This document shows, piece after piece, positions 8,100 to 47,091 of a stretch of DNA of 64,000 nt (within the stretch, counting starts at the first letter, position 1; every line of letters begins with the position of its first letter). The stretch is from Fidelibacterota bacterium (GTDB lineage Bacteria > Fidelibacterota > Marinisomatia > SCGC-AAA003-L08 > GCA-2689995). A program made the translations under genes and the position numbers. The DNA lies in NCBI GenBank assembly GCA_014381925.1, contig JACNKR010000027.1:1991-65990 (forward strand). The letters run 5' to 3'. The notes below the pieces were generated by a model. The model saw only the letters and a list, made by a program, of their open reading frames with translations. It searched no databases and was not told the origin of the DNA.

Positions 8100-8157
8100 G
8101 AATATTTAAATTTAATTAATCCCTTAATTTCAAATGATTTACCCCAAACTACAAACA

Positions 8158-9162: not shown

Positions 9163-9232
9163 AATTAGAGGATTAAATTACGAATAAATTTTCAAACAGT
9201 TTATATTACATTTCTGTATTAATTTTGATTTA

Positions 9233-19334: not shown

Positions 19335-22300
19335 TTATTTAATGAATGAAACTTTTTGAATTTGACTAAATTCATCATTGTAATTTACTTTTATAAAATA
19401 TGAACCGCTACCTAATTCAGTTGGTTGCCATTTTAATTGATGATTTCCCGCAGAAGCAAATTCATCAAAAATAACTTCAATTGTTTGCCCTAAAATATTA
19501 ATAATCTCAATTTTAACATTTGCATGCTCAGGAATAGAATAGCTTATATGCGTTTCTGGATTAAATGGATTTGGATAAACACCATTAATTTTAAATTCAA
19601 TAGGAATATTTGCTGTAATTGAATTACCCTCTTCTGTGATTGAAATTGATTGAGCGTAAATATTTTTTAAATCTTCTTTCCCCGTACTTCTTAAATCCAT
19701 CCAAACCATATAAAATGAATTTTGTTCAGGTGTTTGAGAAAAAATCACTGGTTTGGACTGTTTGTATAATTCATTACAAAGTGGATATCCATTGCCTTCA
19801 AACTCAGGGATTCCATTAATTACATGCTGAAAATACACATCCTTCTCTAAAGCGACATCTTCACCTGGTGGTGTATTTCGTTCATCCTCCCACACAACAA
19901 TAAATGACTCATCACTTCCTAAAATAACATCTGGAGAAATTTGGTCACCAATATCATCTGAAATTAATACCTCACTTTCAGAATTTAAATTTTCTAAATT
20001 AAGCGTATTACAATAAATATTATAATTCAATCCATCTCTATAATCTTCCCAGCAATTATATACTTCATTTGATGTTGGATTAAATGCAACTGATAATCCT
20101 TCTTGACCACCAAACCCAGTTACAATCGGAAAACCATTTTCAGGCCCCTTTAATTGACCTTCAAGTGAAATTATTTGTCCGAAAATATCTATTCCATTTT
20201 CATACCCATTTCGCAAGTCTTCCCAACCAAAATAAATATCATTCCCAATCATTTCCATTACTGGATTATTTTTTATATTTGTATCATTAACTAAAGAAGT
20301 ACCCCATTCTTCCCATCCTTCAATTGTATTTCCATTAGAGTCAATAGCTTTTACAAAAATATTATACCCCGTTAACCAGGACTCCGCTTGCCAAGAGATA
20401 ATAATCCCTCCATTCGGATATTGCTGAATATCTATTAAATGTTGATCTACAATTGCATTTGTATAATCTGATACTTCGATACCATTTTCTTCCCAAACAG
20501 GTACACCTATATCCGAAAATTTTTGTACGAATATTGATTGTGGGCCATGCTTCTTTGCAGAATAGGAAATATAAAATGAATTATCCTCTCCATTTATTAT
20601 TTTAGGTGATTCCATACTCCAATTCACATCTTCAATAATTGGAGTCCCCATTTCACCTCCAATCATATTTAAATTTTCATCTAATAATTGATAATAAATT
20701 GAAGTATATGCACTCTCAACCATAAAAGTAAGTAAAAAATGTCCATTTAAATATGCAATTTGAGGATCTCCTTGGCTTGGATTTAAACATAAAGGTACAC
20801 CATTTGTCCAATTTATAGGCTCATCGTAATTACTATCAATTATCATTCCAAAAGTAACTTCCTGTAATTCAGGTGCCCATCGATTATCAATCCAATATAT
20901 TAATGTTTTACCATCTTCAACATAAATAGAATTAATATGAGAGTCTGTATCAGGGTCGCCTACATTTCCGGTAATTCCAGCAAATACTTTCATGCCGTTA
21001 TCTTCAAATTGAGTTCCTGATTCAGGAGTTATTCGTTGTAAATATATACTATTTGAACCAATTCTATAATCGTCCCAAGCAGCAAAAACTCCACCATTTC
21101 CATCATTTTTTAATACGGGAGATAAAGAATTTTCAGCATTAACTAAGATTCCATTATCTTCAAATGTAAGTTCATTATCTGAATTTAAGTGCTGAACAAA
21201 TACATCAACTTCTGGGAATGCACCATTTCTAAAATCTTCCCAAATAAAATAGGCACCTCCATTACCATCACTTGTTAAGCGTGGATTAATTTGGTATTGT
21301 TCATCAAAAGCTGTTATTCGTAAACCATTTTCATTTAAAATAGGAATACCATCTAAATCTATTTTATGAGCATAAATATCAGGGCGATCAGGGTTATGAC
21401 GATAATCCTGCCAAACTAAATAAGTTCCTGAATCATCACCTTTTACTCGTGGTTTAATCTGTTCTCCATCTGCAATTGCAATACCTACACCATCTTGTTC
21501 TAATAGAATATTTCCATCTAAATCGATATATTGCATGAAAATATCACCAAAGTTTTCAATAGAACGATGGTCTTGCCATGCAACTACAAATTGCTCACCA
21601 TTAACATAAGTAACTTTAGGAGATGTTTGAATAAATGGTGCTTCACAAATTGGAATTCCGCCATCAGAAGGCTCAGATAATATTGTATTACAGTTAATAT
21701 CCATAATTTGAATATATATATCTTTATTTTCATCTTCATCCGCTCCAACAGGGATTGACCTTGACCAAGTCATGCCAGCAAGTCCATCACCAATCACTTC
21801 TAAGCTCACACCGCTTCGTGAAAATGAGGAATTATTTAGCGTAATACCTGTTCCTGGATTTAAAATAGTACCATCAAATGAAATATGTGTTCCTTTTACA
21901 ACAGCAACACCATCTGATTCATCAACCCAAATTGCAAATACACCACCTAAATTATCTTTACACATATTTGGGGATGATTGCTTTCCAGCTACATTTGTAA
22001 TAGGAGTGCCTTCTAATCCAAATTGTAATGTACCATCGGCAAATACATGCTGTCCATAAATATCACCTTTTGCTGGTTCATTTCTGTAATCCATCCAAAT
22101 CATATAAAATCCACCAGCATCATCGGTAATGATAATTGGATCTTCCTGTCGTCCATCTGCTTGTGCAATTGGTATTCCATCTTTTAATCCATCTTCCAAG
22201 GCTACAAGCTCACCATCAGTTCCCCATAATAATTCACCTTCAGTTGTTACCTTCTGAGCAAAGATATCTCTTATACCATACCGACAATCAGACCATACAA

Positions 22301-22448
22301 TTATTAATTCACCTTCATTTCCAATTTCAATTGCTTTCCACCATTCAATATGTGTTCCCTGTCTTAATGGTACCCCATTATCCTGCCAATCAAAGGGAGA
22401 TTGTGCAAAAATTGTACTTATTAATATTATCCAAAAAATTGATTTCAT
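19335..22448 (-). CDS. 1037-aa secreted repeat protein (WxDxR ... DIYxQ units) with T9SS C-terminal sorting domain
   Basis: Signal peptide and at least 11 clear copies of a roughly 55-60 aa unit (e.g. VWSDCRYGIRDIFAQKV, IWMDYRNEPAKGDIYGQHV, VWQDYRHNPDRPDIYAHKI). CTD contains VYPNPFNPETHISYS ... YFIKV. Confidence 0.6.
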   Translation of the reverse strand: MKSIFWIILISTIFAQSPFDWQDNGVPLRQGTHIEWWKAIEIGNEGELIIVWSDCRYGIRDIFAQKVTTEGELLWGTDGELVALEDGLKDGIPIAQADGRQEDPIIITDDAGGFYMIWMDYRNEPAKGDIYGQHVFADGTLQFGLEGTPITNVAGKQSSPNMCKDNLGGVFAIWVDESDGVAVVKGTHISFDGTILNPGTGITLNNSSFSRSGVSLEVIGDGLAGMTWSRSIPVGADEDENKDIYIQIMDINCNTILSEPSDGGIPICEAPFIQTSPKVTYVNGEQFVVAWQDHRSIENFGDIFMQYIDLDGNILLEQDGVGIAIADGEQIKPRVKGDDSGTYLVWQDYRHNPDRPDIYAHKIDLDGIPILNENGLRITAFDEQYQINPRLTSDGNGGAYFIWEDFRNGAFPEVDVFVQHLNSDNELTFEDNGILVNAENSLSPVLKNDGNGGVFAAWDDYRIGSNSIYLQRITPESGTQFEDNGMKVFAGITGNVGDPDTDSHINSIYVEDGKTLIYWIDNRWAPELQEVTFGMIIDSNYDEPINWTNGVPLCLNPSQGDPQIAYLNGHFLLTFMVESAYTSIYYQLLDENLNMIGGEMGTPIIEDVNWSMESPKIINGEDNSFYISYSAKKHGPQSIFVQKFSDIGVPVWEENGIEVSDYTNAIVDQHLIDIQQYPNGGIIISWQAESWLTGYNIFVKAIDSNGNTIEGWEEWGTSLVNDTNIKNNPVMEMIGNDIYFGWEDLRNGYENGIDIFGQIISLEGQLKGPENGFPIVTGFGGQEGLSVAFNPTSNEVYNCWEDYRDGLNYNIYCNTLNLENLNSESEVLISDDIGDQISPDVILGSDESFIVVWEDERNTPPGEDVALEKDVYFQHVINGIPEFEGNGYPLCNELYKQSKPVIFSQTPEQNSFYMVWMDLRSTGKEDLKNIYAQSISITEEGNSITANIPIEFKINGVYPNPFNPETHISYSIPEHANVKIEIINILGQTIEVIFDEFASAGNHQLKWQPTELGSGSYFIKVNYNDEFSQIQKVSFIK
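19338..19589 (-). other. T9SS (Por) C-terminal sorting domain
   Basis: VYPNPFNPETHISYSIPEHANVKIEIINILGQ ... GSYFIKVNYNDEFSQIQKVSFIK. Confidence 0.7.
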
Positions 22449-23856: not shown

Positions 23857-24903
23857 CTATCGGTAAATATCATAAACACCATTCCAAGTTAACTTTATCC
23901 CAAATTCTGTTTTATAGAATGATTTAATATCTTCAACCCACTGAAATTGTGATAATGTTTGGCGATATCTCATTTTAATATAACCATTTATCTTGAAATT
24001 AGAGTTTATTTTTTTTGTTAATGATGTATAAATTTGATGATCAAAATGAATTCTCCCAGAATGTAATGGGTCATCTATTGATTCGTTTAGATATTTTCTA
24101 TTGCCTAACGAGTAAGATATATAGAATTTATCTGACTTTAAGAATTTAATATGTTTTAATGAACGGCTAATCTTTATACTCGCTGTTCGATAAGACCTAT
24201 CTTGAAAAGTTGAGTTTAATCCTGAATAATATGAAATATTATTTCCATCACCAATTCCAATTTTCAACCCATAACTTAGTTTAGAGTTAAATTTATGAGA
24301 TAAATACCAAGAAAAATTATGAATTTCAGTATCAAATTCTGTAAAATTAGAATTATAATATTCACTTGAAATCTCCCATGATATACGCGTCCAATTCTTT
24401 TTATTAATGGGTACTGAATATGAAATAAACCCACTTGCTTTGGAATAAGTACAATCAAAATATTGATTTGAAAAAATATCTGCATCTTGATAGCGTTTTA
24501 AATAATTTTCAGGAGTAAAAGAATATCCTGTTTTCAACCAATGATAAGACCCAAATTTAATTTCAAATTTCCCTGAAAAAGAAATTGTATTTTTTTGAAT
24601 AAATGATCTTACAATTTTACTTCGTAATTGAAATATAAAATTTGTTTCATATTGGTCTAATAATACAGGTGAATAAATTATTTTTAATTGAGGTTTATAA
24701 TAATCACTGTCGTAATATTTTATTTCGCCTAGAGAATTACTACCTAATGTTTTAGTTTGTAAATCACTTTTAGAAAATGAGAAAACATTGGAATCATACC
24801 CCGTTGCAAAATTAAATTGATAATAAATTGGTACAACTAATCTGTCAACAAAATTTTGTCCTAAAAGAAATTGGCTTAATAATATAATTAATAAAATTCT
24901 CAT
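23857..24903 (-). CDS. predicted outer-membrane beta-barrel protein (unassigned family)
   Basis: Signal peptide. Throughout the protein, alternating aromatic/hydrophobic strands are separated by short polar turns. Rich in Y/F/S/N. No family motif recognised. Confidence 0.4.
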   Translation of the reverse strand: MRILLIILLSQFLLGQNFVDRLVVPIYYQFNFATGYDSNVFSFSKSDLQTKTLGSNSLGEIKYYDSDYYKPQLKIIYSPVLLDQYETNFIFQLRSKIVRSFIQKNTISFSGKFEIKFGSYHWLKTGYSFTPENYLKRYQDADIFSNQYFDCTYSKASGFISYSVPINKKNWTRISWEISSEYYNSNFTEFDTEIHNFSWYLSHKFNSKLSYGLKIGIGDGNNISYYSGLNSTFQDRSYRTASIKISRSLKHIKFLKSDKFYISYSLGNRKYLNESIDDPLHSGRIHFDHQIYTSLTKKINSNFKINGYIKMRYRQTLSQFQWVEDIKSFYKTEFGIKLTWNGVYDIYR

Positions 24904-25751
24904 TATTTAGGAATAAATTCTCCACGAATTAATACATTTCTATTGGGGGACTTATTAAAAATCAAAATTTCTGAATCTTTACTATTTATAGAAAAATAAG
25001 AAGTTCTTAACTTTCCAGGGTAGCTTTCTATATTTTCAATTTTACTCTGAGTTGAAATTGATGAATAAAAAATTGATGTTACAACTTTATTATTTTCATT
25101 AAAATTTAAAATATAAGGTTGGTAAAAATCACTCTCATTATTGTAAATACATCGAGAATACAACCAAAAATCACCTTCAAAATCTTCTGAAAAACTAAAT
25201 AATGCATTACCACCTGTTTCTAACATTGAATATGGTGTCGATTTTTTTCCTGTAATTACATTTAATATTTGATTATTATTATAATCTGTTTCTGAAATAA
25301 AAGACTTCCTTCTTTTTGGTTTTAATTGGTGAGTTAATCGTACTAACATAGGTAATTCTTTAGATTTAATTCTAAATTGATGTTTACCTTTTGGAATATT
25401 TATTTGAATTTTACCAGATTTGGAAAATGAATGTGCTGGATGTTTTTTTGACTTTGTATTATCCGAAATTGAAAGTGTTTCTAAAAATTCAAGAGATTCT
25501 GTATTATCTAATCTTAAATTAAATGAAACATCAATTGGAATATTAATTTTCTTTGGTACAGGTTTTCTAAAATATAAATTTATTAATTTAGGGCCTTCTA
25601 TTTCATAAATACATTCATTACCTCTTAAAATATAATAATCAATTTCATTCTTATTTATTAATAATGTCTCAATTTCAATATTATTTATTGGATGCAAAAG
25701 TTTGCCAAATGATAATGTAATTAAAATTATTAAATAAATTATTAACTTCAT
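24903..25751 (-). CDS. hypothetical secreted protein
   Basis: Signal peptide. Its start abuts the upstream stop and its stop shares 1 nt with the next start. No recognisable motif. Confidence 0.4.
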   Translation of the reverse strand: MKLIIYLIILITLSFGKLLHPINNIEIETLLINKNEIDYYILRGNECIYEIEGPKLINLYFRKPVPKKINIPIDVSFNLRLDNTESLEFLETLSISDNTKSKKHPAHSFSKSGKIQINIPKGKHQFRIKSKELPMLVRLTHQLKPKRRKSFISETDYNNNQILNVITGKKSTPYSMLETGGNALFSFSEDFEGDFWLYSRCIYNNESDFYQPYILNFNENNKVVTSIFYSSISTQSKIENIESYPGKLRTSYFSINSKDSEILIFNKSPNRNVLIRGEFIPK

Positions 25752-26897
25752 TTAAATTGTAGAATCTGGATTAAAAGATTTTAATCTATCATTCACTTGT
25801 TTATGACTATATACACCAATTCCTAAAATCATACTCAAACTAATAATTGTGCTTATCCAGGTAATTAATAAATTATATTTTTCAGTAAAATATATGACGC
25901 CTTTTCCAATTTTTTTCTTTGTTGGACCTTGAGGCAATATTCCATCTATTATCTTATTCACTTTAATAATACTCACCACAGGTACATTATTTTCCGCAAA
26001 TGACTTTACCACACTCGGATTCATTTCTTTTTTAATTATTTCATCAGGAGTGAAAACAGGTTTATTTTTTAATTTTGAAACACCTCCAATTCCAATAGCC
26101 GAAACACCTCCACCAATATTTATAAATGCTGAATATCTATTTAATGGAATATAAGATTCATACTTATTTAATCGATGCTCAATACTTTTCAATAAATTTG
26201 ACGAATCTCTTTCTACAAAATAAGGGATAAAATCAATATTATTTCGTTTTATTGAAGATTTAATTAAATTTCGAGATTCTGTTCCACCAAAATTACCAAT
26301 TCTTTTTAAACAATCTCCCTTTCCACCAAGAGATGCCAATGTTGATTGATAATTAAACACACCTTTATCTATTAAAACCGATTCCATATCTAACCAAGTA
26401 AAGTTAGGGTCAGTTGCGCCCCATGTAGAAGAGGAGACAGAAGTAATTATTACAGGATAAACATCCAATGAATTTGTTGCACTAAAAAGGGCTATGTTTG
26501 CACCTGGATTTGAACCTGTTAAACACACTGCAATAGTATCTCCTTTTTCAACACCTGCTTCCATTAATTTATCAACCATAAATCCTGCAAAATTAGGCTT
26601 TAATGTTGCCTGTTTATCTGCCAAATTACCATTACTTGAACGAATTAAACTTTCTTCCTTAAAAATCAATCCAGTTAAGTTGGGGTCAATACTTTTAAAT
26701 ACCTGCATATTTGATTCTTCGACGAAAGATTTTAATGCGTTTAATGCTTTTTTCATCTTTTTAGATGCTGTAATTTTTTCATCATAATTAACAGACTTTT
26801 CTACTACTGTTGAATTAAACACCCAAAAAACTAATAATAAATTAATAACAGCCATAGAAACTAAAATTCTTGTTTTTTGTATCACAGGTCTAAACAT
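25752..26897 (-). CDS. membrane protein partnered with PgsB/PgsC (possible 'poly-gamma-glutamate system protein'; not PgsA/CapA-like)
   Basis: N- and C-terminal TM helices flank a large soluble domain. It overlaps pgsC by 8 nt. I recall a TIGRFAMs family of this name co-occurring with PgsB/PgsC but cannot verify membership here. Confidence 0.45.
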   Translation of the reverse strand: MFRPVIQKTRILVSMAVINLLLVFWVFNSTVVEKSVNYDEKITASKKMKKALNALKSFVEESNMQVFKSIDPNLTGLIFKEESLIRSSNGNLADKQATLKPNFAGFMVDKLMEAGVEKGDTIAVCLTGSNPGANIALFSATNSLDVYPVIITSVSSSTWGATDPNFTWLDMESVLIDKGVFNYQSTLASLGGKGDCLKRIGNFGGTESRNLIKSSIKRNNIDFIPYFVERDSSNLLKSIEHRLNKYESYIPLNRYSAFINIGGGVSAIGIGGVSKLKNKPVFTPDEIIKKEMNPSVVKSFAENNVPVVSIIKVNKIIDGILPQGPTKKKIGKGVIYFTEKYNLLITWISTIISLSMILGIGVYSHKQVNDRLKSFNPDSTI

Positions 26898-28509: not shown

Positions 28510-31500
28510 TTAACCTAAAATAATATTAATAATGATAATGATATCAAAAACATTTAAAACTCCGTCACCATTAATATCTGCAATGTACAATTCAATTGAA
28601 TCTAACGAATTTGATGTTGGATTTAATATTTGATTTACAATTAAAATAACATCAACAATATTAATTACAGTATCTTGATTTACATCTCCCATTGTTAATG
28701 GTGTACTTGGACGAGTCGTAATAAATAATGCCGACTCATCAGCTAATGATAATGCAGTTTCAGGATATTGATTATTAAATGAATATTGTAAACCATCTGT
28801 ACTTGTATGATCTTCTATTCCAACAGTAGCATAAGAACCATGAAATGCAGTAGCACCGCTATAATTTGAAGTATTATTAACAGTTTTATATTGAATTTTA
28901 ATTTCTCCATCACCTGTTGGTGTTAATGTATCATATAAAATAATTTGAAAATCTTGATCATCATTTCCACCATCATTTCTCATATCAGACCACTCAATTA
29001 TAAATACATCCATATTGGGGTTATAAAAAGTGTAAACATCGCCATTGTTAGATGTTTTTAAATCATCCCAAAATGCTGCAATCATGGGTGATGGTCCACC
29101 TGCACCCGGAACAGGATAGTTTCTAAAAGATGTCATTTCGGAGTCACCAAAAGTTATCCATCCATTGGTACAAATAGTGACTTGGCTATATTCTATTCCA
29201 TAGAATGAAAAATCAAATGGTAAGTTTATAGTTGTCGTTTGTTGTAAACTGGGATTACCATCACCACTATTATTTAAATTTAAGTTTGTTCCAGAACCTC
29301 CATAATCAGGATCAATTTCAATCCAATCATAAATTCCTGCTAAGTTATATCCTAAATCACCTGAATCATATATATAATAACCATGTTGGTCAGGACCAAG
29401 AGGATCTGTAATAGTAGCAGTCCCTACTTGAATATGCAATGGTTCACTATGATTATATCCACTTGAGCTTGTTAAATTTAATTGTACAGGAATAACTGTT
29501 CCATTAATAATATTTTCATTTGCTGTAATTTCAATAGAATTAGATGATAGTACTGAGCTATTTGCATTTATTAAATTCCAAGAAATATTATTATCAGCCA
29601 CCGTAAATGTGCTTCCTGGAATAATTAATTCTCCACTAATATTATCTACACCAATATTTCCAATATTTTTTAATTCAATTTGTATATTTTTTGTTTCACC
29701 CGGATTAATTGTACTTCCAGTTATAAATGTATAATTATTTACAATTAATCTTCCACCGACAACATTAACAGGTAAATATCCATTGGCTTCATTTATGTTT
29801 TCATCAGAAATTCTAATTCTTAATCCAAGTTCTTCACCATCCATTGCACTCTCATTTAAAGAAATAAAATACGAAAGTATAATTTCTTCATTTGCCCCTA
29901 TACTTGTTATTGTCTCAATTGAATTTCCATCTAAAAATGTTATTAAATCAATATCTGCTGTTAATTCTACAGTTAAATTAGTCTGTGTTGAACTCCCAAA
30001 GTTTTTTATAGGAATAGCCAAAGAAACTGTTTCACCCGGATTAAATAAACCATCATTATTCCCAGTCAATGGAAAAGCCATACCATCATCATAAATTGAA
30101 ATATTTTCAGCGACTACATTTACAGGAAGAACTGCATCTGTTACTGAAATTGTCCCTTCGTGTGGTATTTTATTTTTCATTGTTACAGTTACGCTTATAC
30201 TTCCCTCTGGAATATCTTCAATATGAAAAAATGCATTCCCTGAATTATCAGTTAATCTATTTTCAAAGATTATATCATTCCCCATTAATAATGTAACCAA
30301 CGCATCTTTAAGTGCATTATTATTTTCATCATTAACCGCAACTTCAATAAAATTTGAACCTAATGATAAATTAGAGTTATAGTTTACAGATAATTCCCTT
30401 GGGGTATCTGTCCATAAATGCGTTGCGGGATCACCCATTAAATTATTCCAATGGGTAAATATATTAACCATATTACCAGAATTAGAAGGGTATGTTTTTA
30501 TTAAATGTAATTTACCATGGACTAAAGCTTCGCCTGCTGTTTGAGCATTACCAGGAAATAATCCCCAATAAATACCCATATCTACAATATTATTATACAT
30601 TGTGTGGGTCCCTGAAGTTGCAGTACCAACTGATGCAATTGCACCTTTAGGGATATTCTCTGACCCCGCTCTAAAAAATGATTCTGACAATGCTTCACCA
30701 CCCCACGAACTTCCAAAACTACCTGTATCACAAGTTAAGACTGTTGCAAATGGAAGCATATAACCATTATTTAGATTATTAATATTTCCACTACCAAATC
30801 CACTTACACCAATATAACCTCTATAATTTAAAAACAACACACCACTGTTTAACTTATTACTCATAAAACTTGACCAGCCATTGTTATACTGGGTATCTAC
30901 ATTTTCAAATTCATATTCATCTAACATATCATTAATAAACATATTTGTAATTATAGTAGAAACACCTGAATAAGAAGGATCGCCGGCAAGTGCAGCACTT
31001 TCATACCAGTCTGTACCTGTTTGTGCAATATACGATGCTTTTTCATAATGAATAATTTTATTTACAACGGTTGCAATATCACTTGAATTTTCAACCGACA
31101 TTCTACCTATTACAACATCGGGATATAAATCATCACCATTTAACAAACCGTATGGATTATCTCCTTTACCACTATATCCTGACCAATTTTCCGTAAAAGC
31201 AGGAATACTATATGAACCACTCACATCACCAATTAAAGTAACAAATTCTGGCTTGGGGTCAAAATCTTCATATGCATTTTGAATATAATTTTTTATTGAA
31301 TTCGTGCTTGTTCCTGTCTGGGAAGTTGAAGCAGTATAAACCGTATATCCCCTTTTATGCCGCCATTCTAATAAGTTTTCTATATTATTATTTGTTAATG
31401 CGTTTCCACCCCCAATAACTAATATTGCAGGCTCTTGAAATTCCATATCTTCAGTACGAGTAAAATTAGGAATTAAACTTTCATACATTTTCACAAAAGG

Positions 31501-32079
31501 TCTTGAATATTGAATTGTTTCTGTAATTGTAGATGAGGTTAATGGAGTGATATTAATATCTACATTATTATAAACAACTAATCTTTTTTCTGATGGGTAA
31601 TATGTAAATGGTACAAATTCTATTGAGATAATATCTATATCTCTCATTGTTTGCGGACTTGAAACATTTAAATTATTTATTGGATAACTAGAAATTTGAG
31701 AAAACGAATTATTGATTAATAAACTTCGTGAGTAAACTTGTTTATGCTCGTCATCTTCTATATAAGGTAGTATATTGATATCTTCAATTGTATATGAATC
31801 TATAATTTCATATTGAACATTATATTGAACATTTTTATCAACCATATATAATGACGAAAATGTGGGTAAATCAGGCATTCCAATTTCTAATAATTGTCCT
31901 GTATGTTCAATTTTAATTTTCTGAAAATCTTCATGTGAATCAAATTCAATATCACCTATATTCAAATTTAAAGTTCCACTCCCATCTGACTGACTGACAT
32001 ATTGGAAATGACTAATTGATGAATTTGTTGTAGCAAATATGCCACTGATAAATAAAATAATTGATAATAATTTTTGCAT
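28510..32079 (-). CDS. gingipain-like (peptidase C25 family) secreted protein with propeptide, NIDO-like module and C-terminal dockerin-like module
   Basis: Signal peptide, a C25-propeptide-like N-terminus (GMPDLPTFS ... MRDIDIISIEFVPFTYYP), and a catalytic-domain-like LNYRGYIGVSGF ... TVLTCDTGSF. The C-terminal module is shared with the 14166..17105 protein. Dockerin at the end. Confidence 0.7.
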   Translation of the reverse strand: MQKLLSIILFISGIFATTNSSISHFQYVSQSDGSGTLNLNIGDIEFDSHEDFQKIKIEHTGQLLEIGMPDLPTFSSLYMVDKNVQYNVQYEIIDSYTIEDINILPYIEDDEHKQVYSRSLLINNSFSQISSYPINNLNVSSPQTMRDIDIISIEFVPFTYYPSEKRLVVYNNVDINITPLTSSTITETIQYSRPFVKMYESLIPNFTRTEDMEFQEPAILVIGGGNALTNNNIENLLEWRHKRGYTVYTASTSQTGTSTNSIKNYIQNAYEDFDPKPEFVTLIGDVSGSYSIPAFTENWSGYSGKGDNPYGLLNGDDLYPDVVIGRMSVENSSDIATVVNKIIHYEKASYIAQTGTDWYESAALAGDPSYSGVSTIITNMFINDMLDEYEFENVDTQYNNGWSSFMSNKLNSGVLFLNYRGYIGVSGFGSGNINNLNNGYMLPFATVLTCDTGSFGSSWGGEALSESFFRAGSENIPKGAIASVGTATSGTHTMYNNIVDMGIYWGLFPGNAQTAGEALVHGKLHLIKTYPSNSGNMVNIFTHWNNLMGDPATHLWTDTPRELSVNYNSNLSLGSNFIEVAVNDENNNALKDALVTLLMGNDIIFENRLTDNSGNAFFHIEDIPEGSISVTVTMKNKIPHEGTISVTDAVLPVNVVAENISIYDDGMAFPLTGNNDGLFNPGETVSLAIPIKNFGSSTQTNLTVELTADIDLITFLDGNSIETITSIGANEEIILSYFISLNESAMDGEELGLRIRISDENINEANGYLPVNVVGGRLIVNNYTFITGSTINPGETKNIQIELKNIGNIGVDNISGELIIPGSTFTVADNNISWNLINANSSVLSSNSIEITANENIINGTVIPVQLNLTSSSGYNHSEPLHIQVGTATITDPLGPDQHGYYIYDSGDLGYNLAGIYDWIEIDPDYGGSGTNLNLNNSGDGNPSLQQTTTINLPFDFSFYGIEYSQVTICTNGWITFGDSEMTSFRNYPVPGAGGPSPMIAAFWDDLKTSNNGDVYTFYNPNMDVFIIEWSDMRNDGGNDDQDFQIILYDTLTPTGDGEIKIQYKTVNNTSNYSGATAFHGSYATVGIEDHTSTDGLQYSFNNQYPETALSLADESALFITTRPSTPLTMGDVNQDTVINIVDVILIVNQILNPTSNSLDSIELYIADINGDGVLNVFDIIIIINIILG
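28513..28689 (-). other. dockerin-like duplicated Ca-binding module
   Basis: GDVNQDTVINIVDVILIVNQIL ... ADINGDGVLNVFDIIIIINIILG. Confidence 0.7.
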
Positions 32080-32363: not shown

Positions 32364-32801
32364 TTGATTCAATTTAATAATATCAAGAAAAAAATAACAG
32401 AAGGGTTTACACTTGTAGAAATCCTTATCGTAGTTGTAATTATCGGAATTTTAGCTTCAGTAGCTATTCCAACCTATATGAAATATGTTGAAAGAGGTTA
32501 TGCTTCTGACGCAAAAGTTCAAATTAAAAACATTTTAGAAAATGCAGAAATTTATAGACAAGAAACAGGTGAGTGGCCTGTGGATGTTCAAACTATGCTT
32601 GATGAAGGTGTTTTAGGAATGAAAAAGTCTGTTCTTAATAAATGGGAATTTGATTTACAATTAGAAGATGATGAATATGGTACTTCTGGTCAAATTACTG
32701 CTTCAAGCCTACCTGGAATGAAGGGTGGAGAAGGAAAGCAAATTATTTACCTTATTGAAGAAGGTGAATATGTTGGATATGGACAAAAAAGAGAACAATA
32801 A
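32364..32801 (+). CDS. pilA: type IV pilin (major pilin candidate), prepilin-type N-terminal methylation domain
   Basis: The leader ends in G, then FTLVEILIVVVIIGILASVAIP (Glu5). An AAAGGAGAGA RBS lies upstream of a TTG start. It is the first gene of the pilus operon. Confidence 0.8.
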   Translation: MIQFNNIKKKITEGFTLVEILIVVVIIGILASVAIPTYMKYVERGYASDAKVQIKNILENAEIYRQETGEWPVDVQTMLDEGVLGMKKSVLNKWEFDLQLEDDEYGTSGQITASSLPGMKGGEGKQIIYLIEEGEYVGYGQKREQ

Positions 32802-33860
32802 ATGGATGTAAAAATTCATGACTTACTTGATTATGCATTAAAAAGTGGTGCATCTGATCTTCATTTAAGTGTTGGTTCTATTCCAATGGTGAGAATTCAT
32901 GGAATAATGAAAAAATTACAATTACCTGTAATGACTCAAGACACAATGGAATCGATTAAAAAAGATGTTTTAAACGAACATCAATTAAAACGCTTTGAGG
33001 AAAAACTAGAAATTGATTTTTCTAAAAAACTTGAGAAAAAAGGTCGTTTTCGCGTAAACTTCTTCAATCAAATAAATGGATATTCTGCTGTTTTCAGAAC
33101 AATTCCTTCGGCCGTTAAATCTACGGAAGAATTGATGATTCCTCCAATTTTAAACCAATTAGCGCTCAAGGAAAAAGGATTAATCCTTTTAACCGGACCT
33201 ACAGGTAGTGGAAAATCAACTACACTTGCAGCAATGATTCAACATATAAATGAACATAAACAACATCATATTATTACAGTTGAAGATCCAGTAGAATATT
33301 ATCATGAATCAAATAACTGTTTAATCAATCAACGAGAATTAGGACAATCAACACACTCTTTTGCGAATGCATTAAAGTCTGCTTTACGAGAAGATCCTGA
33401 TGTTATTCTTGTTGGTGAGATGAGAGATTTAGAAACAATCCAATTAGCATTAACTGCAGCGGAGACTGGGCACTTAGTGTTAAGTACATTACATACTTCC
33501 AGTGCTGTTAAAACAATTGATAGAATTATAGATGTTTTTCCTTCAGGGCAAAAATCTCAAATTAGATCTATGCTTTCAGAAAGTTTATTGGCTGTAATTG
33601 CTCAAAAATTATTACCAAATAAAGCAAAAACGGGACGAGTTCCTGCAAGTGAGATAATGGTTGCATCTTCTGCGATAAGAAACCTAATCAGAGAAGATAA
33701 AATTTATCAAATACCAACATTAATACAATCAGGTGCAAAGGAAGGAATGCAAAGTTTAGATGCTGACCTTCAACGATTATTACACCAAGGCATAATTGAC
33801 CGCGCAGATGCAATTCAAGTTGCTGAAAATCCTGAAGTATTTGAAAGAGGTATTTTTTAA
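32802..33860 (+). CDS. pilT: type IV pilus retraction ATPase PilT
   Basis: 352 aa. Contains ASDLHL, Walker A GPTGSGKSTT, Walker B/Asp box ILVGEMRD, and His box GHLVLSTLHT. Confidence 0.85.
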   Translation: MDVKIHDLLDYALKSGASDLHLSVGSIPMVRIHGIMKKLQLPVMTQDTMESIKKDVLNEHQLKRFEEKLEIDFSKKLEKKGRFRVNFFNQINGYSAVFRTIPSAVKSTEELMIPPILNQLALKEKGLILLTGPTGSGKSTTLAAMIQHINEHKQHHIITVEDPVEYYHESNNCLINQRELGQSTHSFANALKSALREDPDVILVGEMRDLETIQLALTAAETGHLVLSTLHTSSAVKTIDRIIDVFPSGQKSQIRSMLSESLLAVIAQKLLPNKAKTGRVPASEIMVASSAIRNLIREDKIYQIPTLIQSGAKEGMQSLDADLQRLLHQGIIDRADAIQVAENPEVFERGIF

Positions 33861-34301
33861 TTGAACTCAACTCTAAAAACATTAAAGGGATTTACATTAA
33901 TTGAGGCAATGATTGGTGTATTAATTACAGCAATTTCTGCATCAGCGATTATGATGGGAGTTAGCTCAGTAAATCAATCATTAAAAAAAGTTAGAGTTAA
34001 AGAAAAAGCATACGAAGCATTACGAGATTACACTGATTTTCTAAAAGCACGTATTATGGCAGAAGGAGGAAGTACAATTGGTTCTCCATCTCAAAATGGC
34101 GATGAAGTAATATTATTTGAAAATGATCAAGGTGAACCTGTTTATATCGCAACGGTTAACTATCATCCAATTAGAAAATTAAGTGATCAAAATAGTTTAG
34201 GTGAAGTATATTCATTAGACACATATATTGTCTGGGATTTAAATGAAAACGTTAAAGATACAATTGAATTTAATACTGCCCAAATTAGGCTTCAACTATA
34301 G
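33861..34301 (+). CDS. minor pilin (prepilin-type N-terminal domain)
   Basis: LKG/FTLIEAMIGVLITAISA cleavage-methylation motif with Glu5. 146 aa. Confidence 0.7.
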   Translation: MNSTLKTLKGFTLIEAMIGVLITAISASAIMMGVSSVNQSLKKVRVKEKAYEALRDYTDFLKARIMAEGGSTIGSPSQNGDEVILFENDQGEPVYIATVNYHPIRKLSDQNSLGEVYSLDTYIVWDLNENVKDTIEFNTAQIRLQL

Positions 34302-34936
34302 TGATGAAATTATTAAAATATAAAGCTTCTGGATTTACTCTTGTTGAAATGATGACAATTATATTAATCAGTTCGGTATCTTTTTTAGGGATGTTTTATA
34401 TTTATGGTGATGTATCAAAAAAATTAGAAGGCGATTTAGCCCGATCTGAAGTAAAAACATATTGTAATTATGCACTTAATGAAATGGCTAATTATATTAA
34501 AATGGCAGATGATATTTCATTTAATATCTATGATCAAAATATACAATTAATTACAGATGGCAATTATTATGGGCGAAATTCCTTTTCACTATCAAGTGAT
34601 GATGGAATATTAAAAAATGGTGACCCCATACACAATTCAACAACTCGAGATCCAAATAACCCAACTCGTTTTGTAAGAAATCATGTAATTAGATATACTT
34701 CAATTGAAAAAAATCAATTTACTCGGTACAAAATTAGAGATTGGGATATTTATTCTAAACCAAATGTTGATGGTACAACGACAAATGAAAACTCAGATGT
34801 CCGAAAAGCAACATTAATTGTAGAAATGGTTGTAGATATAATTATGGGTTGGGATGAAGATATAATTATTGAAACGCTTTCATTTAAAAAAGAGACTTTT
34901 TCTCCAACGGCATTTATTAAATATCGAAATTCATAA
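34301..34936 (+). CDS. minor pilin (prepilin-type N-terminal domain)
   Basis: ASG/FTLVEMMTIILISSV motif with Glu5. 211 aa. An ATG at 34304 is an alternative start. Confidence 0.65.
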   Translation: MMKLLKYKASGFTLVEMMTIILISSVSFLGMFYIYGDVSKKLEGDLARSEVKTYCNYALNEMANYIKMADDISFNIYDQNIQLITDGNYYGRNSFSLSSDDGILKNGDPIHNSTTRDPNNPTRFVRNHVIRYTSIEKNQFTRYKIRDWDIYSKPNVDGTTTNENSDVRKATLIVEMVVDIIMGWDEDIIIETLSFKKETFSPTAFIKYRNS

Positions 34937-36946
34937 TTGATGACAATTAAGCAAAAACTAACAGCAGGTTTTATTTTACCAACCACAATTGTAATGACAA
35001 TGGTTGGAGCAGGAGTTGTGTTTGCTTATTTTCAAAAAGCAATGGCTGAACATCACCGAGTTTCTCTTAAAATTGCTAAAACAAAAGCAAAATATAACGC
35101 AGGGACAGGATTAGCAATCAAAACCTATGAAGATTTCTTCATGGAAGAAGTGATGATAAATAATTCAGATACCATTCGAAGATATGATGGCGAGATTGTA
35201 GATGGTATGGGTAAATTTGATTCTGTTTCAATTCGTATTAGAAAAAATAAAGGTGGACAATTAATTCGAGTTGCTAAAGCAAAAGGATACTCTACTGTTC
35301 AAACTTTTTGGGGAAATGGATCCTTCACATTAGAAGATTCAGTTAGCTTAATTACAGAACCACAAAAAACATTAGCTACATATTTATACCTTACAGGAAG
35401 CGAAAAAGCGGGCGGTGCTCCACAAACTATGGAAAATGGTGTTAGAAGAGAAGTTAATTTTGGTTCTGGAGATAATTTAAATGCCGGAGATATTCAATCT
35501 AATGGTCAATTAGTAATGAGTGACTTTGGATGTCCTGTATTTAATACAACAGTTACAATCACCGAAGAATGTGTCCAAAACCCTGATGGTACCTATGACA
35601 CCGAGGTTAATTACCCTGATATGGGATTTTGTAATGAAAATTCTGTTTTCCAAGGAAGTCCACCTCTCGATACTTTACCACCTGTATGTTTACCCCCTCC
35701 TTCTTTCGATTCAAAAAAAGCATACGCTGATGTAAAATTAGATGCAACAGAATTATTAAAATGGTCACCGTTTGGATTAAAAGATACATTAATTATGACT
35801 GAAATAGAGTTTGTAGAAGACGGAGGGTTTTATGCCCGTCAATGGTGGTATTTAATGCCGCCACATTTAAAACCAGGAATATCATTAGTTCAAGCTTCAG
35901 CTCCTCAAGGGGCAGATTTAGAAGGTGTAACAAATGCGAATACACAATGTATGAACCCAAGTGATTTAAGGACATGTACCGCTTATGGAGAGGCACTAAT
36001 AAATTACCATGTTAAAGAAATTGATTTTGAGGGTAATGAATCTTTAATTGATGATGATATTCAAGGTACTCATGGTTTTCATCACTATGATACTCATGTA
36101 TATCAATATGACCCAAGCAATCCAAATTCAGCATTTTCAACAGGGTCTGCAAATGTCGTATCTGAAGAGTTTTATCCATATAACCATCCAACCGCTATCT
36201 ATGTTAAAGGTGGGCAAGTATTAGTTCATGGTCGATATAAAGGAAAATATACGATTATAACTGATGAGTACACCACTTACCGGCGACATGCATGGTCACC
36301 AAACTTCTCGTCACCTATAGATACTATGTGGTGTAATATTTGGTTGGTCGATGATATTCGAAATGTAGATGGTTCCACAAATGGAAGCCTATATTCAGTT
36401 CAACCAGATGAAGATTGTACGGGTGGATCAAGTAATGTAATGGGGATTGTTTCTGGTGCCAATGTATTTATTGCAAATACAAAAGCAAATGGTGCAAGAG
36501 GAAGTTCTTATGGAAGTAGTATTGTAATTCATGCACATATAATTGCATTTAATGAATCTTTTTCGATGCATTATTGGCAAAATAGAACCCAATCACCTTA
36601 TGGGTGTGCAAATGGATCTATTTGGGGTGCAGGATATGGAGACTGCAATGGTGACAGATATGGAGGGAATTTTAGTGGCCAAAGTGATTTAAGAGGTACT
36701 GTCAATTTATGGGGGGGTGTTGTTCAAAAATATAGAGGATACATGAAAAGAAATTCTCCCGGCCCATATAGTATATCCCCAGGAATTGGGATGGATAAAA
36801 GTTATCATTATGACAATAATCTAAAGTGTTTTGATCCACCATTATATCCAGAAAGTGTATTTTGTAATGATGAAAGCTGTGGTGGTGAAGCTACAGAAGG
36901 TGAAAATCAAATTAATTTAAAAATAGCAAGTTACAGGGAATTCTAA
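34937..36946 (+). CDS. large pilin-like protein lacking Glu5 (PilX_N/GspK-like N-terminus); candidate pilus tip or cap protein
   Basis: AG/FILPTTIVMTMVGAGVVFAYF hydrophobic N-terminus without Glu5, then about 630 aa with many Cys and Gly and no family I recognise. An ATG at 34940 is an alternative start. Confidence 0.5.
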   Translation: MMTIKQKLTAGFILPTTIVMTMVGAGVVFAYFQKAMAEHHRVSLKIAKTKAKYNAGTGLAIKTYEDFFMEEVMINNSDTIRRYDGEIVDGMGKFDSVSIRIRKNKGGQLIRVAKAKGYSTVQTFWGNGSFTLEDSVSLITEPQKTLATYLYLTGSEKAGGAPQTMENGVRREVNFGSGDNLNAGDIQSNGQLVMSDFGCPVFNTTVTITEECVQNPDGTYDTEVNYPDMGFCNENSVFQGSPPLDTLPPVCLPPPSFDSKKAYADVKLDATELLKWSPFGLKDTLIMTEIEFVEDGGFYARQWWYLMPPHLKPGISLVQASAPQGADLEGVTNANTQCMNPSDLRTCTAYGEALINYHVKEIDFEGNESLIDDDIQGTHGFHHYDTHVYQYDPSNPNSAFSTGSANVVSEEFYPYNHPTAIYVKGGQVLVHGRYKGKYTIITDEYTTYRRHAWSPNFSSPIDTMWCNIWLVDDIRNVDGSTNGSLYSVQPDEDCTGGSSNVMGIVSGANVFIANTKANGARGSSYGSSIVIHAHIIAFNESFSMHYWQNRTQSPYGCANGSIWGAGYGDCNGDRYGGNFSGQSDLRGTVNLWGGVVQKYRGYMKRNSPGPYSISPGIGMDKSYHYDNNLKCFDPPLYPESVFCNDESCGGEATEGENQINLKIASYREF

Positions 36947-36951
36947 ACTAA

Positions 36952-38019
36952 ATGAGTATAGGTATTGACTTTGGTTACTCCAATGTTAAAATTGTTGAGT
37001 TATCCAAATCTGGAGCGAATTACAAAGTTGAAAAAATTGGGATTCGCCCATTAACAGCAGACCTTGCAAAATATAATCCTGAAAAAATTGGGAAATCTCA
37101 ATGGGTTTCAGCAATTCAAGATTTATGCAAGGAATTAAATATTCAAACAAAAAAATCTAAAATTGTAATTTCAAATTTATCGGGACACCATGTAAGTGCA
37201 AGACAAGTAACAACACTTGAAATGAACCATGAAGAATTAGAATTAACACTGGAATTAGAAGCAAAAAAACATATTCCATTAGATGGTTCAGACCCAATAT
37301 TAGATTTTCATATTATTGGACCGAGTGCAACTGAATTAGATAAAATAAATGTATTATTATTAGCAACAACTAAAAATATTGTTGAAAAACATAGTGATAT
37401 CATGAAAGATTCTGGTTTCAAATTAGGAAAATATGATACAGATTCAATTGCGTTGTTAAATTGCTATTTAAATAATAATGAATTACCACAGACTGGAGTG
37501 GATGTCATTTTAAATATTGGAAGCAGTACAACTCAAATGATTATTTGGGGAAAAACCCACCCATTTTTTTTCCGTGAAATTGAAGTATCAGGCTATCATT
37601 TTTCGAAATATATTGCGGATAAAGAAAAAATAAACTTTGAAAGTGCCCAACAAATAATGATTGAGCAAGGGACAAATTATTCACCTCCAGCATCAGATAA
37701 TTCGACTGATGAGCCTTCATCATTTATTCAAGTAGCTGAGAAAACAATTTACGACCAACTTGTAGATGATTTAAGAAAAACACTTCGATATTATATGAAA
37801 AATAATAATCAAGCATTTTTTAATAAGTTTTATGTTTGTGGGGGTTCTTCACAAATTCCAGGATTAAAGGAATTTATTGGAGATGCATTAAATATCAAAT
37901 TAATGGAATTAAATCCATTTGAAAATATGGATATTTCTGAGTCGGTTGAAAATGTTTCTCAATTTGCTGTTGCAACGGGATTAGCAATCCGAGGATTGGA
38001 GCAAGATAATCGTGGATAA
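36952..38019 (+). CDS. pilM: type IV pilus assembly protein PilM (actin-like ATPase fold)
   Basis: IGIDFGYSNVKIVEL phosphate-1 motif, later VCGGSSQIPGL. Followed by PilN/O-like bitopic proteins. Confidence 0.75.
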   Translation: MSIGIDFGYSNVKIVELSKSGANYKVEKIGIRPLTADLAKYNPEKIGKSQWVSAIQDLCKELNIQTKKSKIVISNLSGHHVSARQVTTLEMNHEELELTLELEAKKHIPLDGSDPILDFHIIGPSATELDKINVLLLATTKNIVEKHSDIMKDSGFKLGKYDTDSIALLNCYLNNNELPQTGVDVILNIGSSTTQMIIWGKTHPFFFREIEVSGYHFSKYIADKEKINFESAQQIMIEQGTNYSPPASDNSTDEPSSFIQVAEKTIYDQLVDDLRKTLRYYMKNNNQAFFNKFYVCGGSSQIPGLKEFIGDALNIKLMELNPFENMDISESVENVSQFAVATGLAIRGLEQDNRG

Positions 38020-38617
38020 AAAATTTATATTAATTGATTTAAATAAAACAATTAGCCATGCTCAATTACAAGAAATGCAACAAGATCGAAATAGATGGAT
38101 AATTTTTGGTATTATTGCTTTTGTATTTACATCATTAGCAGGGTGGTTCATCTCAATAAATATGCAAGCAAACTCAATTATTGAAAACCGAAACATAACA
38201 ATTGAGAAATTAATTAATGATACGGATAGACTGAAAATGGAAGGTCAAATTAATTTATCTAAGAAAGATATTGATAATTTAATTAAAACGGAAGGTGGCC
38301 GAATTATTTGGAGTGAGAAATTAAAAATTATTTCTGAAATTACCCCTTTAGATATGGCTATTACTGGTTTAGAATTTAGAAGTTTAAATTTTATTATAAA
38401 AGGTATTTCAAAAGTTCATCCAGATGAAAAAGAATTTTTAATCGTTGAAGATTTTATAAATACCTTAAAAGAAAATGAGAGTTTTTCTAAAGATTTTAAA
38501 TCCATCAAGTTTAAAGGATCTGAAAGAGATATATCTCGAGGCCAAGAAATATTTAAATTTACAATTGAAGCTCAATTAAATAAAAAAACCAACCGGAAAA
38601 AAAGGAGACGGAAATAA
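38012..38617 (+). CDS. pilN: PilN-like bitopic pilus alignment protein
   Basis: Short cytoplasmic N-terminus (ILIDLNK), a single TM helix, then a periplasmic coiled-coil/ferredoxin-like region. Assignment is mainly by position after pilM. Confidence 0.5.
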   Translation: MDKKFILIDLNKTISHAQLQEMQQDRNRWIIFGIIAFVFTSLAGWFISINMQANSIIENRNITIEKLINDTDRLKMEGQINLSKKDIDNLIKTEGGRIIWSEKLKIISEITPLDMAITGLEFRSLNFIIKGISKVHPDEKEFLIVEDFINTLKENESFSKDFKSIKFKGSERDISRGQEIFKFTIEAQLNKKTNRKKRRRK

Positions 38618-39180
38618 TGAAACGAAATATAATTTTACTTTCCATCGTATTTGCCTTTTTTATATTTTTCCAAGTGGGAAATTCTTTTATCATTGCAGAT
38701 AAACCGACGCAAATCGTTGATTTAGAAGGTGATACTGAAGTTGCAAATGAAAAATTTATTACAGCTCAAATTTTATCAAGTAGTTTAAATAAAGTATATA
38801 AATTATTTCAAATTAACTTATCATCTCAAATTAATAAATCTGAAAATCAAGAATCTTCAATTCCATTTTTATCTGATCTAACAGCATTATTGGCAAAATT
38901 AGAAATAAAAACCATTTTTATAAAGCCAAAATCAAAAGATAAAAAGGGAAATAATACACTTATTCCCTATGAGCTAGTCATTAATTGTTCATTTGAGAAA
39001 TTTGGTAAACTAATTACAGAATTAGAAAGTAGTGAACGATTAATAGAAATTGAAGAATTTAATTTAGATAATGGTTTAGAGCGAATTCGTTCAACAAACA
39101 GAGAACAGCAACTTAAAGCTCAAGATATTACACTTAAAATTTCAACGATTACTCTGAATAAAGTAAAAGGTAAAAAATAA
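38617..39180 (+). CDS. PilO-like bitopic pilus alignment protein
   Basis: Single N-terminal TM helix plus a periplasmic domain. Start overlaps the previous stop. Assignment is positional. Confidence 0.4.
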   Translation: MKRNIILLSIVFAFFIFFQVGNSFIIADKPTQIVDLEGDTEVANEKFITAQILSSSLNKVYKLFQINLSSQINKSENQESSIPFLSDLTALLAKLEIKTIFIKPKSKDKKGNNTLIPYELVINCSFEKFGKLITELESSERLIEIEEFNLDNGLERIRSTNREQQLKAQDITLKISTITLNKVKGKK

Positions 39181-39683
39181 TGAACGCAAGAGTAAAAGCA
39201 ATTTGGAATTTAAGCATTGGGGTTTCAATTTTAATTTTATTATTTTCAAGTTATCAATTATTTAATTTGCAAGAAGTTATTAGCGAATTAGAATTAAATT
39301 TTGAAAACGAAGAAATTGGAACAGATAAAATTCTACAAAAAAATATTGAAAAATTAGAAACTAATTTGAAAAAAAGAGATGGATTTAAATTTATTATTGA
39401 AAATTCACCTACTGATTTAACAAATGTAGTTCAGTTTGATGGATTTGATCCTCGATTTAATCGAAATTCAAAACATATATATGTTACAGCAATTATTAGT
39501 TCTTCTCGGTCTAATATGAATAGAGCAATTGTGCTTTATCGAGAAGATGAATTTACGGTAATGAAGGGTGATTCCGTTGCAGGCGGATTAATTACTGACA
39601 TTACAACTAAAGAAGTCCATTTTGAAAAAAGTGGAAAAGAGTTCGTTTTTTACAAAGGACTTGAAACCGAAATTTTAGAATAA
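39180..39683 (+). CDS. PilP-like periplasmic protein
   Basis: N-terminal anchor and a small C-terminal beta domain (GDSVAGGLITDITTKEVHFEK). It lies immediately upstream of the secretin. Assignment is positional. Confidence 0.35.
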   Translation: MNARVKAIWNLSIGVSILILLFSSYQLFNLQEVISELELNFENEEIGTDKILQKNIEKLETNLKKRDGFKFIIENSPTDLTNVVQFDGFDPRFNRNSKHIYVTAIISSSRSNMNRAIVLYREDEFTVMKGDSVAGGLITDITTKEVHFEKSGKEFVFYKGLETEILE

Positions 39684-39705
39684 TATAGATAAACAGGAGA
39701 ACGAT

Positions 39706-41136: not shown

Positions 41137-41137
41137 T

Positions 41138-44113: not shown

Positions 44114-44127
44114 TAAAAAGTAAATTA

Positions 44128-45846: not shown

Positions 45847-45848
45847 TT

Positions 45849-47090: not shown

Positions 47091-47091
47091 A

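Follow-up and report, generated by a model that had tools for sequence, protein, structure and literature searches.

A conserved poly-γ-glutamate synthase cassette of Fidelibacterota with a predicted outer-membrane barrel as a candidate export route

A stretch of 64,000 nucleotides (nt) from a member of the Fidelibacterota (GenBank assembly GCA_014381925.1, contig JACNKR010000027.1, positions 1,991 to 65,990 of the forward strand; hereafter the window) was analyzed for genes linked to the synthesis and possible export of poly-γ-glutamate (PGA). The window is AT-rich (approximately 30% GC), and its closest relatives were metagenome-assembled genomes of Candidatus Neomarinimicrobiota/Marinimicrobia. 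Ten closely packed genes, all on the minus strand, spanned positions 32079 to 14166 and were followed by a terminator-like hairpin (Table 1). The original prediction, made without database searches, had singled out three open reading frames (ORFs) translationally coupled to pgsC, encoding proteins of 381, 282, and 348 amino acids (aa). All three were located on the minus strand where it had placed them, and the coupling was supported by an 8-nt overlap between pgsC and the 381-aa gene, after which the genes abutted (381/282, gap of 0 nt) or shared 1 nt (282/348). An 8-nt overlap was likewise present between pgsB and pgsC, and 26 nt separated pgsB from the 1189-aa peptidase gene upstream. Median gaps across approximately 80 related loci were −8, −8, −23, and −1 nt from pgsB through the barrel gene. 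A scan for sigma-70 promoters was uninformative, with 132 sites vs. 129 expected.

Table 1. Genes of the apparent PGA operon in the window and the hairpin that follows them.
Feature	Positions	Strand	Evidence	Remarks
Peptidase C25 (gingipain family), 1189 aa, propeptide and C-terminal dockerin	28510-32079	-	Pfam Peptidase_C25 E 3e-54, Propeptide_C25, Dockerin_1	First gene of apparent operon
pgsB, PGA synthase (Mur-ligase-like amide ligase), 386 aa	27323-28483	-	TIGR04012 E 1e-115, 386 bits (cutoff 223); Pfam Mur_ligase_M	
pgsC, PGA synthase membrane subunit, 146 aa	26890-27330	-	TIGR04011 E 6e-35, 120.5 bits (cutoff 96); Pfam Caps_synth_CapC E 1e-33	
TIGR04332 protein, 381 aa	25752-26897	-	TIGR04332 E 7e-72, 242 bits (cutoff 100)	
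p282, secreted, 282 aa, signal peptide and two tandem ~125-aa beta-sandwich-like modules	24903-25751	-	hhalign of halves	
p348, predicted 14-stranded outer-membrane beta-barrel with signal peptide, 348 aa	23857-24903	-	AlphaFold2, Foldseek	
p464, probable lipoprotein, LVIVD-type beta-propeller family, 464 aa	22454-23848	-	Pfam LVIVD in homologues; synteny	
Secreted repeat protein, 1037 aa (p1037), type IX secretion C-terminal sorting domain	19335-22448	-	Pfam Por_Secre_tail E 7e-9; synteny	
Zinc carboxypeptidase M14, 741 aa, CarboxypepD_reg and dockerin domains	17109-19334	-	Pfam Peptidase_M14 E 7e-26; synteny	
Second peptidase C25, 979 aa, type IX secretion sorting domain	14166-17105	-	Pfam Peptidase_C25 E 2e-49, Por_Secre_tail	Last gene of apparent operon
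Terminator-like hairpin, 11 bp stem then T-rich tail	14112-14137	-	Pattern match only	29 nt past last operon gene

PgsB and PgsC, named as such from the outset, were equivalog-level matches to their curated models. Because of these matches, the two proteins would be expected to polymerize glutamate at the inner membrane. The further claim that the window lacks genes like those for CapA/PgsA, CapD/Ggt, and PgdS also stood: a Pfam scan of the 36 window ORFs of at least 245 aa found no PGA_cap (CapA/PgsA), G_glu_transpept (GGT/CapD), or NLPC_P60 domain. The PgsBCA(E)/CapBCA(E) systems of Bacillus share with this locus the PgsB and PgsC orthologues, their order and overlapping genes, and, directly after pgsC, a gene for a third protein that is anchored in the membrane and has a large extracytoplasmic domain. 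In contrast to Bacillus, where this third protein is PgsA/CapA (Pfam PGA_cap, metallophosphatase-like), the third gene here encodes a TIGR04332 protein, and it is followed by two to three extra envelope genes, including that of an outer-membrane barrel, which a monoderm would not need.

The original prediction had regarded the three proteins after PgsC as unassigned. This held for p282 and p348, which belong to no curated family, but not for the 381-aa protein: searched against the TIGRFAMs model for the "poly-gamma-glutamate system protein", as had been proposed, it gave a clear match covering profile positions 3–294 of 307. This is the NCBIfam family TIGR04332, and NCBI/JGI annotation gives homologues of the 381-aa protein the same name. 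No Pfam match was found for the protein and no paper on the family in our literature search. Transmembrane helices had been proposed at both of its ends, in agreement with hydrophobic segments at approximately 11–29 and 344–362 and with helices 9–27 and 343–374 in the AlphaFold2 model. Since basic residues precede the first helix and follow the second, both termini are probably cytoplasmic and the domain of approximately 310 aa between them periplasmic. The model, built from 70 sequences, was of an alpha/beta type and confident (pLDDT 92.4, pTM 0.85), whereas a Foldseek search of the PDB gave no fold match, with a best template modeling (TM) score of 0.21, and no metallophosphatase; a search of the PDB with the sequence profile likewise returned no solved relative. 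On these grounds a divergent PgsA was rejected as an identity for the 381-aa protein, which, for want of any PDB relative in fold or sequence, is better regarded as a different protein in the PgsA position; no fold family was assigned. Invariant polar residues in the TIGR04332 alignment (D71, K95, D120, the T127-G-S-x-P-G-A-N134 motif, S153, S157, D170, E172, D195, R242, and N260) suggest a putative binding or catalytic site. A subgroup of the family (P0107, P0112, P0115, and P0117; 462–475 aa) has an insertion of approximately 90 aa towards the start of the periplasmic domain, at alignment columns ~135–205.

The p282 protein begins with a hydrophobic segment resembling a Sec-type signal, consistent with the earlier description of it as secreted. 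Its N-terminal and C-terminal halves were homologous to each other (hhalign probability 99.1%, E 7e-19), and the protein therefore appears to have arisen by tandem duplication of a module of approximately 125 aa. Identity to homologues was only ~14–38%. No curated family was matched in Pfam or NCBIfam, and searching PDB sequences with the p282 profile found nothing; among 45 homologues, weak Pfam matches to immunoglobulin (Ig)-like or carbohydrate-binding-module (CBM) families occurred in a few (MtxA_IG-like 7/45, DUF4399 5/45, AMPK1_CBM 3/45). A link to LBF_2017 of Leptospira, prompted by a weak NF047607 match (E 0.008), was treated as chance because only one of these 45 homologues showed this match. 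The GC content of the window falls to 24% over positions 24001–26000, which hold the p282 and barrel genes, vs. approximately 30% elsewhere, in agreement with fast divergence of both proteins.

Whether the 348-aa protein would be predicted as a barrel had been set beforehand as a test of the proposal. The AlphaFold2 model (pLDDT 79.5, pTM 0.75) showed 14 long antiparallel strands behind a signal helix, and Foldseek matched it in the PDB to outer-membrane barrels exclusively, the best TM-scores being those of the 14-stranded CymA and OmpG (TMq 0.50–0.53), followed by FadL, general porins, and PgaA, the porin for poly-N-acetylglucosamine (PNAG). The signal region comprised a hydrophobic segment at residues 1–19, modeled as a helix at 2–22 before the first strand, and hydrophobic and polar faces alternated in all strands. 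In 47 of 55 non-redundant homologues the C-terminal residue was F, Y, or W; the window protein ends in YDIYR, with Tyr in the penultimate position. When lumen-facing positions were chosen by strand parity rather than from coordinates, 24 K+R vs. 8 D+E fell on them in the window protein, and the family mean net charge was +9.3 at these positions compared to +2.8 for the whole mature protein. Such a basic lumen, if correctly modeled, fits a channel for a polyanion. AlgE is a comparable polyanion channel, for alginate. An exhaustive profile search retrieved 476 cluster representatives at E ≤ 1e-3, and none of 33 diverse members, the window protein among them, was assigned to a curated family in Pfam or NCBIfam; judged by these searches, p348 represents a sizeable uncurated family.

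The survey of related loci covered the best 80 of the 263 species-representative genomes bearing TIGR04332, and the ORFs of the fetched loci were classified by iterative searches with hidden Markov models (HMMs). Identity of the surveyed TIGR04332 proteins to that of the window went down to 33%, and the taxon labels were Neomarinimicrobiota, Fidelibacterota, LCP-89, and Caldithrix. The TIGR04332 gene directly followed pgsB-pgsC in the window and in 79 related loci with all three genes called; outside this count were four loci cut at a contig edge and one (L056) without a full TIGR04332 ORF call. Downstream of TIGR04332, p282 and then the barrel were found in 70/70 loci with at least 2 kb of downstream sequence, p282 invariably lying between the two. 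The 70 loci include the window, three that were fetched from the barrel side (L001–L003), and one contig counted twice (L001/L014), and thus stand for slightly fewer independent genomes; one of the barrels, masked by a stretch of N, was detected at E 2e-82. Approached from the barrel side by 11 individual look-ups of p348 homologues, the complete order pgsB-pgsC-TIGR04332-p282-barrel was present in 10/11 (all but L090), including distant homologues and loci of 63.5% and 66.5% GC. A lack of phylogenetic co-occurrence with pgsBC had been named as the other result that would speak against the trio, and co-occurrence was what the survey found from either side.

Gene fusions connected the same proteins. 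In a 12.18-Mb chromosome of 63.5% GC (OZ375331.1; locus L084), two consecutive genes were fused (7987–9996 and 10001–11935). The protein after PgsC, of 669 aa, consisted of a TIGR04332 domain (15–350, E 3e-85) and its second transmembrane helix, followed after a short basic loop by a third hydrophobic segment, which resembles a signal, and a p282 module (402–660, E 4e-43); the next gene encoded a 644-aa protein with a p282 module (49–290, E 6e-19) followed by the barrel (315–641, E 1e-43). The topology of this arrangement is self-consistent, as both p282 modules would be periplasmic. Another representative (P0190) likewise joined one p282 module to a barrel. Because p282 modules are fused to both partners, p282 is linked to the inner-membrane TIGR04332 protein on one side and to the outer-membrane barrel on the other. 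Fusions of this kind are a classical sign of physical contact between proteins that are separate elsewhere, and similar contacts may be expected in the window organism. We therefore propose p282 as the periplasmic adaptor joining the TIGR04332 protein and the barrel.

The trio named in the original prediction left out p464, which travels with the barrel: its homologue lay directly after the barrel in the 64 loci in which both genes were called on the same strand. The window copy itself had no Pfam match, and its family assignment came from homologues with precomputed Pfam LVIVD matches (L088 8119–9120, L089 9158–10159, L090 8069–9124, L091 8166–9161, and L092 8164–9156). A Cys residue was present in the signal region of 38/42 homologues. 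The window protein is longer, at 464 aa, owing to an Asp-rich insert resembling calcium-binding sequences.

Taken as one system, these genes could encode a trans-envelope apparatus in which PGA is exported or presented via the barrel. PgsB and PgsC would polymerize glutamate, while the TIGR04332 protein, anchored in the membrane at both termini with its alpha/beta domain in the periplasm, would stand in for PgsA as the third inner-membrane subunit. Through its two tandem beta-sandwich modules p282 would bridge the periplasm, touching both the TIGR04332 protein and the outer-membrane protein, and the 14-stranded barrel, with its presumably Lys/Arg-rich lumen, would let the polyanionic chain out or keep it on the cell surface. 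For p464, the LVIVD-type lipoprotein, an accessory role at the outer membrane is likely. We lean towards this interpretation and consider it moderately probable. The role of the trio as a candidate export route for PGA, as first put forward, gained support from the barrel prediction, the co-occurrence, and the fusions, and passage of PGA through the barrel would follow from these by inference.

The arrangement follows the same logic as synthase-dependent exopolysaccharide secretion, in which a single operon supplies a polymerase for the inner membrane, a connector for the periplasm, and a dedicated beta-barrel for the outer membrane (alginate Alg8/44-AlgK-AlgE, PNAG PgaCD-PgaB-PgaA, and cellulose BcsAB-BcsC). 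In AlgE and PgaA the charge of the pore is complementary to that of the polymer. The differences are nevertheless considerable: the polymer is a polysaccharide there and would be a poly-amino acid here, the barrels have 16–18 strands rather than 14, and the tetratricopeptide repeat (TPR) scaffold of those systems is replaced by a duplicated beta-sandwich connector, with p282, p348, and p464 all free of TPR domains. Sequence homology was lacking, p348 having no Pfam or NCBIfam match to the AlgE, PgaA, or BcsC families, and PgaA (4y25), although among the structural matches of p348, scored no better than generic barrels (TMq 0.40). By analogy, the cassette may work like synthase-dependent secretion, but it does not belong to those families. 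EpsL (TIGR03014), the outer-membrane protein of XrtB/PEP-CTERM exopolysaccharide loci, is likewise a barrel whose gene lies in an exopolymer locus; weak matches to its model occurred in 2/33 barrel homologues (best E 5e-5), whereas the other 31, including the window protein, had none at E ≤ 0.1.

Among Gram-negative bacteria, Fusobacterium nucleatum was the sole PGA producer listed in a 2013 review (PMC3815933, citing Candela et al., 2009). It faces the same problem of passing PGA across an outer membrane, and the review describes no outer-membrane component for it. Our literature search found no work addressing an outer-membrane route for PGA in diderms and nothing relevant on a cryo-electron microscopy structure of PgsBCA. 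The pgsB-pgsC-TIGR04332 cassettes are known as a family defined by annotation only, and the p282, barrel, and LVIVD genes that follow are in no curated model and are annotated as "hypothetical protein". No earlier description appears to exist of the p282/barrel (and LVIVD) module or of its connection with the PGA synthase, which the fusions support, whereas the 381-aa component already had a family name.

The genes surrounding the five-gene core bear on how the system should be read. A C25 peptidase gene lay directly upstream of pgsB in most loci, including distant ones (L086 2949–6398, L088 709–3063, L089 208–3984, L091 1–3022, and L092 1–3228). Its recurrence there, beyond Marinimicrobia and across GC contents, points to a functional connection with the PGA system, possibly in processing or anchoring, rather than chance. 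The M14 carboxypeptidase gene was syntenic in most Marinimicrobia loci, and the gene of the 1037-aa protein, which bears a sorting domain of the type IX secretion system (T9SS), was conserved as an operon neighbor within Marinimicrobia only. Both gamma-D-glutamyl peptidases and tubulin deglutamylases are found among the M14 enzymes; by analogy, the operon enzyme is a candidate for trimming PGA in place of PgdS or CapD. The five-gene core occurred without a detected C25, M14, or p1037 homologue in L048 and L074, in L087 as judged by precomputed Pfam matches, and also in L084.

Several observations weigh against export of PGA through the barrel. PGA production by Marinimicrobia was not documented in the literature found, and the locus survey was a limited sample. 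The p348 model was built on an alignment of 12 sequences only, the selection of lumen positions by parity qualifies the charge estimate, and in some family members the net charge at these positions was only −1. The best conserved barrel motifs (YDSN, FTEYD, and DPLHxGR) sit in predicted extracellular loops, a location that, in the model, would be compatible not only with a pore but also with an anchor or receptor at the cell surface, and in one locus (L090) the barrel and the LVIVD protein occurred while no pgs gene lay within 7 kb. The last two points would be expected if the barrel, p282, and the LVIVD lipoprotein anchored or organized PGA at the surface, as Wzi tethers group 1 capsule, or sensed or took it up, the polymer crossing the outer membrane by another route. 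The weak Ig/CBM-like matches of the p282 modules, suggestive of polymer binding, point the same way. However, no other outer-membrane candidate was conserved in the cassette, the fusion that joins a p282 module to TIGR04332 at the inner membrane speaks for a link across the periplasm, and the lumen of the barrel is, by the parity estimate, basic; we therefore regard a purely surface-bound role as rather unlikely. A product other than free PGA would be conceivable if PgsBC and the TIGR04332 protein glutamylated another envelope molecule, which p282 and the barrel would then handle; this product might, for example, anchor the secreted peptidases encoded alongside. PorU, the sortase of the T9SS, is of the same peptidase clan as C25 and attaches cargo to an anionic polymer. 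The absence of PgsA and the conservation of the C25 gene upstream of pgsB far outside Marinimicrobia would agree with such a role, but PgsB and PgsC scored well above their equivalog cutoffs, the core persisted without a detected C25 gene in the four loci named above, and nothing pointed directly to another acceptor, making this explanation improbable.

Still less probable, in our view, is that the barrel serves as a T9SS accessory of the PorP/SprF or PorV type for neighboring cargo (the C25 peptidases and the 1037-aa protein), its adjacency to pgsBC reflecting a conserved neighborhood only. Cargo-specific PorP/SprF barrels are typically encoded beside their cargo, and PorV is a 14-stranded FadL-like barrel; proteins with Por_Secre_tail domains do flank the operon, and FadL was among the Foldseek matches of p348. 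Yet none of 33 diverse members of the p348 family matched PorP_SprF (PF11751), PorV, or other T9SS models in Pfam and NCBIfam at E ≤ 0.1, and p348 was rejected as a PorP/SprF or PorV barrel for lack of HMM support. The loci that keep the core without these cargo genes (L048, L074, and L087, and also L084) argue against this role as well, as does the fusion of the same p282 module to TIGR04332 and to the barrel.

Should export through the barrel be correct, the cassette might go further and constitute a dedicated trans-envelope machine for secreting a poly-amino acid, the first outer-membrane route for PGA, with a new duplicated beta-sandwich connector, a 14-stranded barrel lined for anions, and a PgsA replacement of unseen fold, widespread in Marinimicrobia and related lineages of the Fibrobacteres-Chlorobi-Bacteroidetes group. 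We hold this fuller claim to be quite possible while stopping short of calling it probable. PGA synthesis is understood almost wholly from the monoderm Bacillus, and the cassette names a candidate for each step in a diderm, namely a substitute for PgsA at the inner membrane, an adaptor in the periplasm, and a pore in the outer membrane, backed by synteny in more than 70 genomes and by the fusions. Export of PGA in diderms thereby becomes directly testable, for instance in a cultured carrier; one related locus (L074) was labeled Caldithrix abyssi. If the interpretation holds, the Marinimicrobia (SAR406), an abundant ocean lineage, may make a glutamate polymer and coat themselves in it or release it, with a bearing on marine dissolved organic nitrogen. 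In addition, p282 and the barrel were defined as protein families not yet curated, and a first structural view of TIGR04332 was obtained in the form of a predicted model.

Beyond the cassette, dockerin domains (Dockerin_1) ended not only the first C25 peptidase and the M14 carboxypeptidase of the window but also an arylsulfotransferase-like protein (12593–14083). In L003 the M14 orthologue bears a Por_Secre_tail domain instead, and the orthologue of the first C25 peptidase had a weak Dockerin_1 match. Divergent from the PGA operon, a complete cluster resembling those for type IV pili or type II secretion occupied positions 32364–47829 on the plus strand, with pilins, a PilT-like ATPase, PilM, probable PilN/O, a secretin, a PilB-like ATPase, PilC, and a prepilin peptidase; the same neighborhood was found in L003. 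The dnaA gene lay at 55292–56662 (plus strand), and the chromosomal origin may be near, while the cumulative GC skew was lowest at approximately 32 kb, in the region of the divergent promoters rather than at dnaA. Also on the plus strand were a glycolate-oxidase-like pair, consisting of an FAD-linked oxidase (9233–10663) and an Fe-S/CCG subunit (11300–12487) with an ORF between them (10660–11334), and, at 50016–53173, the large subunit of a ribonucleotide reductase, probably of class II as read from its sequence, followed by a separate ORF with a TSCPD domain.

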